Source: Acidimicrobiia bacterium (GTDB lineage Bacteria; Actinomycetota; Acidimicrobiia; Spongiisociales; ZC4RG35). From it: DNA of 64,000 nt. The first letter of the stretch is position 1, and each line of letters opens with the position of its first letter. Below, piece after piece: positions 4,550-14,264 of the stretch. The notes under the pieces are model-generated. The model was not told the origin of the DNA, searched no databases, and was given only the letters and a program-made list of their open reading frames with translations. The translations under genes were made by a program, and so were the position numbers. The stretch is taken from the NCBI GenBank assembly GCA_040902845.1, contig JBBDWM010000042.1, positions 73,825 through 137,824 of the forward strand, written 5' to 3'.

Positions 4550-4602
4550 TTTCTCTGGCCGGGACAGGTCCTCTCCCCCTCCCAGTCCCATGCCAGACAA
4601 CC

Positions 4603-4640
4603 AGAGAGCCCCGGTTTCGATCGGGGCTCTCTCTTTTGTC
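4603..4640 (+). terminator. rho-independent terminator (AGAGAGCCCCG-loop-CGGGGCTCTCT + TTTTG)
   Basis: Perfect 11-bp stem with a T-tract immediately downstream of the small gene. Confidence 0.6.
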
Positions 4641-4691: not shown

Positions 4692-4901
4692 ATGAAACAG
4701 GTACTTCTTCAAGCACCCGAGATCCATTGTGATCACTGCAAAATGAGCATCGAGGGTGCGGTCGGCGCTCTGAATGGGGTCTCGTCCGTCGAAGTGGCTA
4801 TCGCCGATGCGACCGTAGATGTCACCTACGACGACAACACCACCGACCTCGAAGTCATCAAGCACGCCATCGAGGAGCAGGGCTACGCCGTCTTCGGCTG
4901 A
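4692..4901 (+). CDS. copZ: copper chaperone CopZ (heavy-metal-associated domain)
   Basis: 69-aa HMA fold with a CxxC metal site (HCDHC) and a ferredoxin-like pattern. Adjacent to copA. Confidence 0.75.
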
Positions 4902-8186: not shown

Positions 8187-9752
8187 TCAGCCCCCAGACC
8201 GCAGCAGGCCCACCGTGATCCCCTCGCTGAGGGCTTGCCATGAGGCCTGGATGATGTTCTGATGAACCCCGACTGTTCCCCAGGTCGAATCGCCGTCGGT
8301 GGTCTCGATCAGGACCCGGACCCGGGCCGCGGTCCCATCGGATGAATCCAGGTCACGCACCTTGAAATCGGTGAGCCGGAGACGTTTCACGTCGGGATAG
8401 GAGGCCTCCAACGCCTTACGCAGCGCCTCGTCCATGGCGTTGACCGGGCCGTCGCCTTCGGTGGTCACCTCGATCTCGTCCTCATCCACAGCCACCACCA
8501 GATGAGCACGAGCCGTCACCTTTCCAGCTTGGTTGGTCTGGATGTTCACCGACAACGACCTCACCTCGAACAACTCCTCGAAGTCGGCGGTGGCCCGTCG
8601 CATCAGCATCTCGAAAGATCCGTCGGCCGCCTCGAACTGATATCCGGCGTGTTCCAGTTCCTTGACCTGGTCGACCAGGGCCTGAGCCTCGTCCGCGTTG
8701 AGATCCCACCCCTTTTCCTCGGCCACCGCCAGCACGGTCGACCTTCCCATCAGCTCACTGAACAACATCCGTGCCGAGTTCCCCACGGCGCCTGGGTCGA
8801 TGTGCTCGTAGGCACCTTCGAGCCGGGCCATGCCCGAGGTGTGCAGCCCGGCCTTGTGGGCAAAGGCCGAAGCACCCACGTAGGGACGGCGGGAATCAAT
8901 AGGGGCGCCCAGGATCTCAGCGATCTGCTGGGCGATCGGGTAGAGCCGAGCCATCGACTCCAAGGGAATGGTCTCCACACCGGACTTGAGGCTGAGGTTG
9001 GGGATGACCGAGCACAGGTCGGCGTTGCCGGTCCTCTCCCCGTACCCGTTGACACAACCCTGCACCTGATGGACCCCGTGAGCCAGGGCCGTCATCGAAT
9101 TGGCCACCGCACAGTCCGAGTCATTGTGGAAATGGACCCCGAGGGTGGTGTCGATCCGTGACGACACCGCGTCTATGGCGGGGATGATGTGGGATGGCAG
9201 GGCCCCCCCGTTGGTGTCACAGAGCACCACCCGCTCGGCGCCGGCAGACGCGGCAGTCTCCAACACCGACAGGGCGTACTCGGGGTTGGAGCGGAAGCCG
9301 TCAAAGAAATGCTCGGCGTCGAAGAAGACCTGCTTCCCCCGTTCACGGAGGAACGCGATGGACTCGCCGACCATGGCCAGCCCTTCCTCGAGCGAGGCGT
9401 TGAGGGCCCCAATCACATGACGGTCCCATGCCTTGCCCACGATGCAGACGTAATCGGTGTCAGCGGCGAGCAGTGCCTGGAGCTGGGCGTCTTTGGCCAC
9501 CGGTCCCCTCGGCCGTCGGGTTGAACCGAACGCCACCAGGATCGACCGTTCCAGGGACAGCTCAGTTTTCGCTCGCTGGAAGAATTCGTCGTCCTTGGGG
9601 TTGGCCCCGGGCCAGCCCCCTTCGATGAAATGCACCCCCAACTCATCGAGGAGACGGACCACCCGGAGCTTCTCACCCACGGTCGGGGAAAGCCCCTCGG
9701 CCTGGGTGCCGTCCCTGAGCGTCGTGTCGTAGATCTCGGCTGTCGGATTCAT
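8187..9752 (-). CDS. cimA: (R)-citramalate synthase / 2-isopropylmalate synthase family (CimA-like)
   Basis: 521 aa. N-terminal DRE-TIM barrel (LRDGTQ, HFHNDSDCAVANS) plus a LeuA-dimer regulatory domain. Short form typical of CimA. Confidence 0.75.
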   Translation of the reverse strand: MNPTAEIYDTTLRDGTQAEGLSPTVGEKLRVVRLLDELGVHFIEGGWPGANPKDDEFFQRAKTELSLERSILVAFGSTRRPRGPVAKDAQLQALLAADTDYVCIVGKAWDRHVIGALNASLEEGLAMVGESIAFLRERGKQVFFDAEHFFDGFRSNPEYALSVLETAASAGAERVVLCDTNGGALPSHIIPAIDAVSSRIDTTLGVHFHNDSDCAVANSMTALAHGVHQVQGCVNGYGERTGNADLCSVIPNLSLKSGVETIPLESMARLYPIAQQIAEILGAPIDSRRPYVGASAFAHKAGLHTSGMARLEGAYEHIDPGAVGNSARMLFSELMGRSTVLAVAEEKGWDLNADEAQALVDQVKELEHAGYQFEAADGSFEMLMRRATADFEELFEVRSLSVNIQTNQAGKVTARAHLVVAVDEDEIEVTTEGDGPVNAMDEALRKALEASYPDVKRLRLTDFKVRDLDSSDGTAARVRVLIETTDGDSTWGTVGVHQNIIQASWQALSEGITVGLLRSGG

Positions 9753-9765
9753 GGTTCACACCTTG

Positions 9766-9894
9766 CCAAAGAAAAGACCCCCGCGGTTTGCGGAGGTCTG
9801 AAAAGGGGCGGCGCCTCTCGTGAGGCGCGAACCCCTAGGGAATGATGATGTGCGCTGTTGCCTGGATTCTTTCTCGCATCGAGGGGCCAGTATG
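9766..9894 (-). promoter_or_regulatory. Ile leader-peptide attenuator: promoter, 14-codon leader ORF (9835-9879, MRERIQATAHIIIP), terminator hairpin 9777-9799 plus T-tract
   Basis: On the minus strand: CTTGAC, 18-nt spacer, CATACT, then a near-leaderless ATG. The leader ends His-Ile-Ile-Ile-Pro. GACCTCCGCAAACCGCGGGGGTC + TTTTCTTTGG precedes the cimA start. Confidence 0.55.
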
Positions 9895-9924
9895 CGTGGG
9901 AGTTGTCAGATCGTCAAGACGCGG

Positions 9925-9957
9925 AAGAGGAGAGGCCCTCACCGGTCTCTCCTCTTC
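9925..9957 (-). terminator. terminator hairpin for the anti-sigma gene (GAAGAGGAGAG-loop-CTCTCCTCTTC)
   Basis: Perfect 11-bp inverted repeat just downstream of the stop at 9977. Confidence 0.5.
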
Positions 9958-9976
9958 CGTTCTCCGAGTCAGGCGT

Positions 9977-10591
9977 TCAGCTGGTGAAGGCTTCCTCGAA
10001 GGCTGCGCGCAGCTCCGGGGTGCTCTTTCCGCTGAAACCGCAGTAGTTGACGTTGCCCTCGGTGGCGGTGATCAAGTATTGGCCACCTTCTTCGAAGGCG
10101 AACCCGTCGATCAGCGCTTCCAAGCCCTGGGGCGCGTTGAGCACCACCTGGCTGGCATCACCACCCTTGAACCAGGTGTCAACTTCGAGGGTGACCGCGT
10201 CGCCGTCCACCGAGGCGACGGTTCCCTCAAAGGCAACAGGCATCGGTGCGAGGTACTCGATGCTGAACATGATGCACATCGCCATCGGGTCCTCGCCGCC
10301 GGCGTTCAGCTCGAGTGGGGGGGTCGCCGCGATCGTGTCGCCGCCCCCATCGCCGTCGCCGGAGAGGAGGCCTACGGCGCCGATGGCCACGATGACGACA
10401 GCGGCTGCCGCCACGGCGACCAGCCACGGTCTCTTGCTTGGGGTGCCCGAGGATCCGGGTTGCTCCACATTGGGGCTGCTCATGATTTCCTCCAGAAGTT
10501 GTCGGGACGATTCGGTCGTCACTGGCTCCGTCGGCACATCGGAAGCCATCGGGTCGAGCCGGCTGAGGCGATTGCGCAATTCGTCGGTCAC
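9977..10591 (-). CDS. anti-sigma factor (single-pass membrane protein)
   Basis: 4-nt overlap with the upstream ECF sigma gene. Cytoplasmic N-terminus, one TM helix, extracytoplasmic C-terminal domain. Confidence 0.6.
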   Translation of the reverse strand: MTDELRNRLSRLDPMASDVPTEPVTTESSRQLLEEIMSSPNVEQPGSSGTPSKRPWLVAVAAAAVVIVAIGAVGLLSGDGDGGGDTIAATPPLELNAGGEDPMAMCIMFSIEYLAPMPVAFEGTVASVDGDAVTLEVDTWFKGGDASQVVLNAPQGLEALIDGFAFEEGGQYLITATEGNVNYCGFSGKSTPELRAAFEEAFTS

Positions 10592-11127
10592 GGTCGATGC
10601 TCCTCGGTGTGTCGGTTCCGTTTCTGTCCGTCAACGGAGGAATCCTGTCGGGAGAGCTTCGATTCGAGCTTGGCCTTGGCCCGGGTGAGCCGGAGACTCA
10701 CCGCGTTCGGGGTGGTATCGAGCACCAGTGCGATCTCACGTGGCTCCAACTGCTCCCAGGCCCAGAGTCTGAGTAGCTCCTGATCCGGCTCCGACAACTC
10801 GGAGAGGGCAGCCTCCAATGCGGGATCGTCGACCTCATGGGAAGGCGAGGCGGAAGCCTCGGCGGTGATGCGCTCGACCAGCCGGAGATGACGCTGCGCC
10901 CCTCGACGTTGATTGGCCAGACAGCGTCTCGCCACGCCGTAGCACCAGGGCAGTGGAAGGTCACCTGGGACGTTGTCGAGGCGCCGCCAGATGGTGAGTA
11001 GGACCTCACTGAGGGTATCGGCCGCGTCATCGGGCGTGGCGCGTCGTCGCAGATAACGCTGGAGCGGCTCGTACACCTGAGCGGCGATGAGTTCGAAACG
11101 CTGCCGCCGCTCGATGTCGGAGTTCAC
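10588..11127 (-). CDS. ECF RNA polymerase sigma factor
   Basis: Sigma-70 region 2 and region 4 patterns (ELIAAQVYEPLQRYLRRR, TPNAVSLRLTRAKAKL). Confidence 0.85.
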   Translation of the reverse strand: MNSDIERRQRFELIAAQVYEPLQRYLRRRATPDDAADTLSEVLLTIWRRLDNVPGDLPLPWCYGVARRCLANQRRGAQRHLRLVERITAEASASPSHEVDDPALEAALSELSEPDQELLRLWAWEQLEPREIALVLDTTPNAVSLRLTRAKAKLESKLSRQDSSVDGQKRNRHTEEHRP

Positions 11128-12583: not shown

Positions 12584-13549
12584 ATGTCAGCCGGTGGCGG
12601 AACCAGGGCGATCATCGCCGCGATGCTGGCCAACGCCGGAATCGCCCTCGCCAAATTCACCGCCTATCTGGTCACCGGCTCGGCCTCGATGCTGGCCGAA
12701 TCGATCCACTCGGTGGCCGACACCTCGAACCAGGGGTTGCTCCTCCTCGGAGGCAGACAGTCCCGCAAGGTCGCCGACGACCACCATCAGTTCGGATACG
12801 GACGGGAGCGCTATTTCTGGTCGTTCGTGGTGGCGCTGGTGCTGTTCTCCTTGGGTGGGCTCTATTCGATCTACGAAGGGGTCTCCAAGATCCTCTATCC
12901 CCACGAGTTGACGTCGATCGGCTGGGCCATCGGCGTGCTCGTAGTGGCCATCGGATTGGAGACGTTCAGCTTCAGGACCGCCATCGGGGAGGCGCGCAAG
13001 GTCAAAGGCGAGCGAGAGTGGCTGGGCTACATCCGAACCTCCCGCTCCCCCGAGTTGCCGGTGGTACTGCTCGAAGACGCCGGTGCCTTGCTCGGTCTTC
13101 TCTTGGCTCTGACCGGGGTGGGGCTCTACGTGGTCACCGGTGACGAGGTCTGGGATGCGGTCGGGACACTCTGCATCGGCGTGCTGCTGGTGGGAATCGC
13201 CATCTTCCTCACGGTCGAGATGAAATCGCTGCTGATCGGGGAGGCTGCCCTGGACGACCACATCAGGGCGATCGACCAGGCCTTGACGGCCAGCCCTCAC
13301 GTCGTGCGGGTTATCGATCTCCGCACCCAACACATCGGCCCCGAGGAGCTGCTGGTGGCTGCCAAGGTCGAGTTCACGAAGCGCCTGACCAGCCCTCAGC
13401 TGGCGGCCGCAATCGACGTCGCCGAGGCATCGATCCGTAAGGCCCTTCCCTATGCCAGCCGGATCTATCTCGAACCAGACGTGTGGAAGGGAGGGCATGT
13501 CCCCACCTCGGACGGGGCGCCCGGGACCGAGGGCGAGGCTCGTGGGTGA
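12584..13549 (+). CDS. cation diffusion facilitator family transporter (CzcD/ZitB-like)
   Basis: Six TM helices, HSVADTSN motif and a C-terminal cytoplasmic domain. Confidence 0.85.
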   Translation: MSAGGGTRAIIAAMLANAGIALAKFTAYLVTGSASMLAESIHSVADTSNQGLLLLGGRQSRKVADDHHQFGYGRERYFWSFVVALVLFSLGGLYSIYEGVSKILYPHELTSIGWAIGVLVVAIGLETFSFRTAIGEARKVKGEREWLGYIRTSRSPELPVVLLEDAGALLGLLLALTGVGLYVVTGDEVWDAVGTLCIGVLLVGIAIFLTVEMKSLLIGEAALDDHIRAIDQALTASPHVVRVIDLRTQHIGPEELLVAAKVEFTKRLTSPQLAAAIDVAEASIRKALPYASRIYLEPDVWKGGHVPTSDGAPGTEGEARG

Positions 13550-13609
13550 GGTTTCCCCTGGCCCCGACAGCCGGTATCGTCCTGTGCTGAACGTGGACGA
13601 CACGGACTC

Positions 13610-13683
13610 GCGGGTGTAGTTCAATGGTAGAACACGAGCTTCCCAAGCTCGGGGCGAGGGTTCGATTCCCTTCACCCGCTCCA
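13610..13683 (+). tRNA. tRNA-Gly (anticodon CCC)
   Basis: Cloverleaf folded by hand: acceptor GCGGGTG/CACCCGC, anticodon loop TTCCCAA, TTCGATT T-loop, CCA encoded. Confidence 0.9.
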
Positions 13684-13685
13684 GA

Positions 13686-14264
13686 ATGATCTTTTCCGAC
13701 AGGTCCATACGAGAGGCGATCGAGAGCGGGGTTATTGTCATCGATCCGTACGAGCCTTCCCACGTCCAGCCCTCTTCGGTGGATCTCCGGGTTGGCAATG
13801 GGTTCCGGGTCTTCGTCAACCATCGTTACAGCCAGATCGACCCCCGGGCCCCCCAATCGGATCTGACCCAATTGGTGGAGGTCGAAGCCGAAGAGCCATT
13901 CATGCTCCACCCCGGCGAGTTCGTGCTCGGCTCCACCCTGGAGCGGATCAAGCTCAGTGACGACCTGGTGGCCCGGCTCGAGGGCAAGTCCTCCCTGGGC
14001 CGTCTCGGATTGCTCATCCACTCCACCGCCGGGTTCATCGATCCCGGGTTCGAAGGTCACATCACCCTTGAGCTCTCCAATGTGGCAACGCTGCCCATCG
14101 CCATCTACCCGGAGATGAAAATCGGCCAGATCAGCTTCTATCGGATGACCACGGCAGCCGAGTTCCCTTACGGCTCGCCTGAGCTGGGATCGAAGTATCA
14201 GGGCCAGAGCGGGCCCACCGCCAGCCGATCTCATCAAGATTTCGATCGATCGGGCACTGACTAG
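13686..14264 (+). CDS. dcd: dCTP deaminase
   Basis: 192 aa of the dUTPase-like fold with typical Dcd motifs ([15 protein letters not shown]). Starts directly after the tRNA. Confidence 0.85.

Follow-up and report, generated by a model that had tools for sequence, protein, structure and literature searches.

A conserved isoleucine leader element preceding cimA in Acidimicrobiia, a possible ribosome-gated attenuator without an antiterminator helix

The window analyzed here, a stretch of 64,000 nt from an Acidimicrobiia bacterium (contig JBBDWM010000042.1, assembly GCA_040902845.1), contains on its minus strand a compact leader immediately upstream of cimA, the gene for citramalate synthase. The leader consists of a small open reading frame (ORF) ending in a run of isoleucine codons, a first stem-loop that starts within the ORF stop codon (hairpin 1) and, a few nucleotides further, a terminator hairpin with a U-rich tract. 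This element is certainly real, and it is conserved and Ile-specific in related cimA loci. From its sequence features, it is very probably an Ile-sensing leader-peptide attenuator acting at this terminator. We estimate a probability of about 0.5 for the complete proposal that we develop here, namely a ribosome-mediated attenuator that would raise cimA expression when charged tRNA-Ile is scarce and that would be built without an antiterminator helix. The particular mechanism that we put forward, a steric tug-of-war (TOW) between hairpin 1 and the terminator, is drawn by analogy with a class of riboswitches and, taken by itself, falls slightly short of even odds.

Sequence inspection located on the minus strand all the elements listed in a preliminary description of this DNA. 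A promoter scan found a strong promoter with a -35 hexamer TTGACG (9917–9912) and a -10 hexamer CATACT (9894–9889) separated by 17 nt; the promoter CTTGAC-18-CATACT proposed earlier is the same site, read one base earlier. The scan yielded one such site in 1.6 kb versus 0.1 expected from shuffled sequences. The ATG of the leader ORF (9879–9877) is only 9 nt past the -10 hexamer, in agreement with the earlier view of it as almost leaderless, and opens an ORF of 14 codons, MRERIQATAHIIIP, plus a UAG stop (9835–9879), delimited from the sequence and its homologs. Its putative translation has the C-terminus I-I-I-P-stop, with the candidate regulatory Ile codons AUC AUC AUU at 9849–9841, the triplet run already pointed out, and the stop codon at 9837–9835. 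Hairpin 1 (9836–9804; 13 bp, predicted -23.9 kcal/mol) is made of the core GCGCCUC-ACGA-GAGGCGC that had been singled out as a stem-loop and a base extension AGGGGU/GCCCCU, and the UAG stop codon supplies its first two paired bases, the A and the G. A 4 nt spacer, UUUC (9800–9803), separates it from the terminator hairpin AGACCUCCGC-AAACC-GCGGGGGUCU (9799–9775; 10 bp, -18.0 kcal/mol), followed by an interrupted U-rich tract, UUUCUUUGG (9774–9766), so that the order of stem-loop, terminator-like hairpin and U-rich run before cimA is as had been described. A Shine-Dalgarno-like AAGGUG (9759–9764) lies 6 nt before the cimA ATG and stays unsequestered in the predicted folds. The 138-nt leader folded with z = -3.3 relative to shuffled sequences, with 1 of 200 shuffles equally good. 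As to the downstream gene (8187–9752, ATG at 9752, 521 aa), its assignment as cimA is supported by a match to TIGR00977 with 636 bits over a cutoff of 450.

For comparison we used the 80 closest cimA loci from a species-level genome collection, which are almost all from metagenome-assembled genomes of Acidimicrobiia and whose products show 49–84% amino acid identity. An ORF ending in an Ile run was present 50–130 nt upstream of cimA in 40 of the 80 loci. A covariance model covering the Ile codons, the stop, hairpin 1 and the terminator (model R1) matched 43 of the 80, the presence of the leader in relatives having been proposed beforehand as a test, and exactly one site in the 64-kb window (E = 3e-11). 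The genes upstream of the leader vary among loci, indicating that the element travels with cimA. The approximately 37 loci without a leader have mostly cimA directly after ilvE, and no leader was found in the 1.5 kb upstream of these ilvE-cimA loci. Members of the family span from about 70% GC down to the 32% GC of ‘Ca. Actinomarina’, whose leader peptide is MKKIIIII.

Among these leaders the peptides are 10–16 residues long and have unrelated N-terminal parts, the Ile run alone being conserved; the ending is nearly always I-I-I plus 0–2 residues, and the run comprises at least three Ile in 35 of 40 leaders and is II or IGI in the remainder. The rare codon AUU makes up around 30% of the Ile codons in 37 high-GC leaders, compared with 8–10% in long ORFs. 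To search for the architecture without fixing the residue, we scanned approximately 0.95 Mb, on both strands, for short ORFs ending in any triple residue and followed by an abutting hairpin and a terminator; this returned 16 Ile leaders and four unrelated matches, none of which resembles a leader for another amino acid. Likewise, no convincing case of the same architecture with other amino-acid runs was found in the window or in the 80 loci.

The promoter is also retained: a -35 TTGAC(G/T/A) with a 17-nt spacer occurs in 30 of the 35 leaders that could be parsed, a -10 CATACT in 25, a gap of 8–10 nt (mode 9) between the -10 hexamer and the start codon in 28, and an ATG start in 33. Since this gap is too short, the leader ORF can have no Shine-Dalgarno sequence. 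Leaderless upstream ORFs (uORFs) are common in actinobacteria and, from the promoter geometry, we infer that this one is leaderless as well, with the transcript starting at or within approximately 3 nt of the AUG.

Two loci show variations of the arrangement. In L070, the Ile leader VKAFLTAVIIIS and both hairpins (287–380) precede leuB (443–1432), the gene for 3-isopropylmalate dehydrogenase, and the end of leuB overlaps with the beginning of cimA; by this gene order, a single Ile sensor is predicted to control two steps of the citramalate route. In L016 (1321–1433) a variant leader, MTALHLRNGLILT, with Leu-Ile-Leu replacing the Ile triplet, keeps the same two-hairpin layout and scores 56 bits with R1; its codons suggest that it may sense both Ile and Leu.

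Alignment with MAFFT followed by RNAalifold recovered only the terminator, with hairpin 1 falling out of register between clades, which was fixed by realigning to the covariance model. In the resulting alignment of 45 sequences there are compensatory changes in 17 of the 18 stem pairs, none of 500 shuffles matched the observed score, and the signal collapsed when the registers were slid. Compensatory changes affect all ten modelled pairs of hairpin 1 and seven of the eight modelled pairs of the terminator, where 95.5% of the cells are paired. The stems include G-U pairs, indicating that the structure acts at the RNA level; a DNA palindrome or operator was discarded as a candidate on the same grounds. 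In the family alignments the terminator arms (9790–9799 and 9775–9784 in the window) are unusually conserved in sequence relative to hairpin 1; the 5′ arm, (A)CCCUCCGC, includes an anti-Shine-Dalgarno-like CCUCC, and the 3′ arm, GCGG(A/G)GGG, is Shine-Dalgarno-like.

The spacing of the elements is conserved. In 39 of 40 leaders, hairpin 1 starts between -2 and +2 relative to the final base of the stop codon, and the distance from the last Ile codon to the first paired base is 2–9 nt (median 5). Hairpin 1 has a GC-rich base and family medians of 10 bp and -19.3 kcal/mol; the spacer between both hairpins is 0–7 nt (median 3), being <5 nt in 35 of 40 leaders. For the terminator, the predicted free energies (dG) have -16.6 kcal/mol as their median, and 34 of 40 leaders reach -15 kcal/mol or lower, the exceptions coming mostly from low-GC genomes; the stem has weak pairs (A-U or G-U) at its bottom and an interrupted U tract after it, with a median of 6 U in the 9 nt past the stem. 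The Ile-to-hairpin distance and the spacer length do not compensate for each other (rho = 0.03). Counted from the P site, the ribosome keeps the mRNA single-stranded as far as about +11 to +13 and protects it to about +15 or +16. With these footprint numbers, a ribosome with an Ile codon in the A site would spare hairpin 1, whereas with the stop codon in the A site it would cover its whole 5′ arm; accordingly, hairpin 1 had a calculated probability of 0.96 when the ribosome mask was placed for the Ile codons and of 0.01 when it was placed for the stop codon.

The stop codon itself is biased. It is UAG in 31 of 40 leaders compared with 6 of 34 (18%) long ORFs of the window, where TGA dominates (27/34), giving a binomial P <1e-8 that overstates the evidence, since the leaders are related. 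Endings in Ile-Pro-stop and Asp-Pro-stop are common among the leaders, and Hayes et al. are said to have reported in 2002 that such Pro-stop contexts terminate slowly. Both traits would fit, and suggest, selection for a long dwell of the ribosome at the stop codon, which would hold hairpin 1 open. Programmed frameshifting, which the spacing between the Ile run and the hairpin resembles, was considered and rejected, as AUC AUC AUU allows no -1 or +1 re-pairing of the tRNA.

The preliminary description took this leader as a classic attenuation architecture and proposed to fold it in search of mutually exclusive antiterminator and terminator structures, which we did not find. We split 40 leaders into six segments, the ORF, the arms A and B (+ spacer) of hairpin 1, the arms C and D of the terminator and the tail, and compared the duplex energies of segment pairs with those of composition-matched shuffles. 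The arms of hairpin 1 (A:B, z = -4.7) and of the terminator (C:D, z = -4.4) stood out, whereas 12 other segment pairs, with the tail extended up to the cimA start, were at or below chance (z from -0.4 to +0.8); pairings B:C (+0.77) and A:C (+0.57) are, if anything, avoided. In the clade of the window, the ORF's purine-rich 5′ end could apparently pair with the U tract, but this pairing was rejected because it is not general.

Equilibrium folding with ribosome masks predicted the terminator in every state. This test is not discriminating, since the Escherichia coli leaders thrL, trpL and hisL likewise keep their terminators, and we used instead a co-transcriptional test, in which the transcript ends at the terminator 5′ arm and we asked whether upstream sequence has already paired with this arm. 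The three E. coli controls gave a pairing probability of 0.32–0.66 with the ribosome on the regulatory codons and of 0.00–0.14 with it on the stop codon; for the cimA leaders the corresponding values were 0.15–0.20 and 0.26–0.32. Thus, the signature of a classical antiterminator was seen in 3/3 controls and in 0/40 leaders, with footprint edges of 9, 12, and 15 nt. Besides a few bases under the ribosome, those free with a stalled ribosome are also free with the ribosome at the stop codon, which leaves folded hairpin 1 as the only entity specific of the stalled state. Hairpin 1 and the terminator coexist, sharing no bases, in the minimum free energy fold of 40/40 leaders, and the probability of the terminator at equilibrium is unaffected by the state of hairpin 1. 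In these models, then, the two hairpins abut but form independently, with no bases for which they compete. In two leaders (L037 and L042) hairpin 1 has a 3′ arm that, once freed, is similar to the 5′ arm of the terminator, and the terminator probability at the stop codon drops to 0.00–0.11; this predicted disruption is opposite to the expected logic and is probably due to chance. Together, these analyses indicate that the regulatory logic of the preliminary description is probably right, although the mechanism is not the textbook one.

We propose the following model. The near-consensus promoter would produce an mRNA starting at, or within approximately 3 nt of, the AUG of the 14-codon ORF. When Ile is scarce, the ribosome would stall on an Ile codon, which would put the hairpin 1 base at about +12 to +18 (counted from the P site), at or just outside the mRNA entrance; hairpin 1 would then stay folded, wedged between the stalled ribosome that backs it and the RNA polymerase (RNAP). 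Folded and at 4 nt from the terminator, it would block the bottom of the terminator stem in the RNAP exit channel, allowing readthrough into cimA. When Ile is plentiful, the ribosome would reach the UAG and unwind the whole 5′ arm of hairpin 1, whose freed 3′ arm would become a flexible linker of approximately 15–25 nt, so that the terminator could form and transcription would stop. Hairpin 1 might also pause the polymerase approximately 10–13 nt downstream, inside the terminator 5′ arm, which would synchronize ribosome and polymerase. Because there is no alternative pairing, the folding of hairpin 1 would be, by elimination, the sole difference between the stalled and the stop states; modelled in this way, hairpin 1 holds the logical place of an antiterminator, being folded on stalling and masked at the stop codon.

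This model relies on the TOW riboswitches, in which an upstream structure and the terminator compete sterically for the RNAP exit channel in a sequence-independent manner, as confirmed by in vitro transcription (Bushhouse, Fu and Lucks, bioRxiv 2026, 10.64898/2026.06.17.733018). The known natural cases, all of them ZTP riboswitches, have a spacer of <5 nt, a terminator with a dG below -15 kcal/mol, no overlap between both structures and an imperfect U tract, and natural ZTP examples become locked OFF when the U tract is perfected (10.64898/2026.06.17.733018). The cimA family follows the same rules for spacer, dG, lack of overlap and U tract, which are all the features that can be tested on sequences. 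The upstream structure is, however, a ligand-stabilized aptamer in the TOW riboswitches and a plain hairpin before cimA, where we propose that folding is set by the position of the ribosome on the leader ORF; no ribosome-gated case is described in the TOW paper (10.64898/2026.06.17.733018). The cimA leader could tentatively be considered the first natural ribosome-gated TOW attenuator, with a hairpin that adjoins the stop codon on one side and the terminator on the other and acts as a steric block in place of an antiterminator helix.

Several observations weigh against this model. In the TOW experiments, the weakest terminator was the only one that a plain upstream hairpin suppressed, with little or no effect on stable ones (10.64898/2026.06.17.733018). 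The predicted OFF folds of the E. coli his and trp leaders have structure at 2–5 nt from the terminator and these leaders nevertheless terminate. The trend for stronger terminators to have shorter spacers is weak among high-GC leaders (rho = 0.30, p = 0.07, uncorrected for phylogeny). Synchrony between ribosome and polymerase would, according to the model, require a pause; the transcription start site is placed from the promoter geometry, and the case for the element in this organism is computational. The contribution of the abutting ribosome is our own addition to the TOW scheme, and the bulk of the ribosome may be essential.

The closest rivals to our proposal keep the same parts and assign them other roles. 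The stalled ribosome could itself be the antiterminator, with hairpin 1 as a mere tether that places it a few nt from the terminator; a hairpin 1 free of ribosomes would then be harmless to termination, and a leader that is not translated would terminate, as in classical superattenuation. The geometric evidence for this possibility is the same as for our model, and it agrees with the weak effect of bare hairpins and with the structured vicinity of the terminator in the E. coli OFF folds. Nevertheless, it does not explain the UAG bias and the slow-termination endings, since the dwell time at the stop codon would be irrelevant; we consider it unlikely as a separate mechanism, and it is a sub-variant of our model rather than truly exclusive of it. 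Somewhat less probable still is that hairpin 1 serves only for pausing, synchronization or stabilization, with a terminator that works constitutively or under some other control, such as NusG, NusA or a protein, so that the Ile run would affect just the timing or the stability of a short leader RNA. Its geometry is suited to hold the polymerase in the terminator 5′ arm, approximately 10–13 nt downstream, and the small effects of plain hairpins on strong terminators point the same way (10.64898/2026.06.17.733018). This explanation, however, offers no route from Ile supply to cimA output and does not account for the Ile run throughout the class, the enrichment in AUU or the fixed distance to the hairpin; besides, a pausing role is compatible with the steric model and does not exclude it.

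The two other explanations are less probable. A classical attenuator, whose antiterminator shares bases with the terminator 5′ arm and escaped detection, for instance through non-canonical pairs or a pseudoknot, would share with our model a logic, a leader peptide and a terminator that are all classical. Actinobacterial ilvB leaders have been modelled in this manner (M. tuberculosis ilvB1, PMC13236596; C. glutamicum, PMC11857589), and in five leaders (L002–L004, L037, and L042) the terminator 5′ arm shows moderate pairing (P about 0.45). We nevertheless regard it as improbable, given that the 12/12 pairs of segments other than the hairpins are at or below shuffles in 40 sequences, that the signature validated with the controls appears in no leader at any of the three footprint edges, and that the bases free on stalling are essentially a subset of those free at the stop codon, leaving nothing but hairpin 1 able to form specifically on stalling. 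Lastly, the two conserved stem-loops of the 5′ leader could be a ligand- or protein-binding RNA, such as a riboswitch, a T-box or an operator-like palindrome, with an incidental small ORF. Ile-responsive T-boxes are placed before cimA in Geobacter, which our literature search did not confirm. The preliminary description had set aside a T-box or a known riboswitch, and in keeping with this Rfam 15 gave no relevant match, even at E <= 10, in 9000–11000, and over the whole window only a tRNA reached the gathering threshold. Moreover, stem and loop sequences vary freely and no unpaired bases are conserved; the sole conserved sequence is the in-frame Ile run, whose codons vary synonymously (AUC/AUU) and whose start and stop frames are fixed, and the G-U pairs rule out a DNA palindrome. 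This makes a binding RNA highly improbable.

Attenuation by leader peptides is well known for branched-chain amino acids, including E. coli ilv and the actinobacterial ilvB leaders (PMC1262725, PMC10272879, PMC11857589, PMC13236596). In the cimA leader, as in the enterobacterial leaders trpL, hisL, thrL and ilvL/ivbL, tandem codons for the end product occur in a short ORF before a terminator and a biosynthetic gene, and in both a ribosome at the stop codon would mask the structure that prevents termination. The enterobacterial leaders, though, have an ORF led by a Shine-Dalgarno sequence, along with a 2:3 antiterminator that overlaps the terminator, whereas the cimA ORF is predicted to be leaderless and hairpin 1 shares no bases with the terminator. 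Nearer in phylum and pathway family are the ilvB leaders of Corynebacterium glutamicum (ilvBNC, ilvB-II motif) and Mycobacterium tuberculosis (ilvB1), in which a hairpin and a U-tract terminator also come after a uORF rich in branched-chain amino acid codons. According to the model for ilvB1, the ribosome at the stop codon masks the antiterminator (PMC13236596), and in the Corynebacterium leader the P1 loop pairs with the terminator shoulder. These leaders control ilvB, their codons are a mixture of Ile, Leu, and Val, and the models for them have the antiterminator overlap the terminator; in contrast, the cimA leader has a pure Ile run, precedes and would control cimA, and shows neither overlap nor an Rfam match.

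For the leaderless polycysteine uORFs of mycobacteria, a control of downstream translation instead of termination has reportedly been proposed. They are also short actinobacterial ORFs with a run of codons for the amino acid of the downstream operon (bioRxiv 10.1101/834739). No conserved terminator hairpin was found in polycysteine leaders (PMC1262725), unlike the clear, covarying terminator of the cimA leader. In the literature searched, we found no report of a leader peptide for cimA.

The genes downstream of cimA in the window, a PAC2-family gene and a gene for a P-type ATPase, are convergent on the plus strand and, consequently, cimA would be the sole gene controlled by the leader. The co-directional upstream gene, which ends at 9977, is an ORF of 204 aa with only weak anti-sigma-like matches, located downstream of a gene for a sigma-70-family factor (regions 2 and 4). 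At 19 nt past its stop codon, a 12-bp GC-rich hairpin lacking a U run, GGAAGAGGAGAG...CUCUCCUCUUCC (9923–9958, minus strand), ends 5 nt short of the cimA -35 hexamer and probably acts as a U-less terminator that shields cimA from upstream transcription. On the plus strand, two adjoining hairpins followed by UCUUUUGUC (4554–4631) occur directly past the end of an ORF, approximately 60 nt before an HMA-like frame and approximately 190 nt before position 4819, where the P-type ATPase ORF is listed to start, and probably constitute an ordinary intergenic terminator. Additionally, a tRNA gene (13610–13680, plus strand; RF00005, 72.6 bits) lies within a long ORF of the opposite strand (12587–13819), which is therefore probably spurious.

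The cimA leader supplies a natural test case for the blocking of a terminator by a non-overlapping structure, which has so far been shown mainly with engineered RNAs, with the position of the ribosome replacing the ligand. If our model is true, antitermination without overlap would reach beyond ZTP riboswitches into translation-coupled control, widening the repertoire of attenuation, and it would explain why some actinobacterial elements composed of a leader peptide plus a terminator resist classical modelling; searches for attenuators that demand a predicted antiterminator helix will overlook such elements. At approximately 115 nt and with a modular organization (promoter, leaderless ORF of 10–16 codons and two hairpins), the element is also an attractive amino acid-responsive part for high-GC hosts. 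Acidimicrobiia are a largely uncultured class of actinobacteria, abundant in soil and marine environments. For these organisms, the leader provides regulatory support for the citramalate route to isoleucine, as an Ile-specific control suits a committed enzyme of the Ile pathway and, in one locus, the leader also covers leuB.

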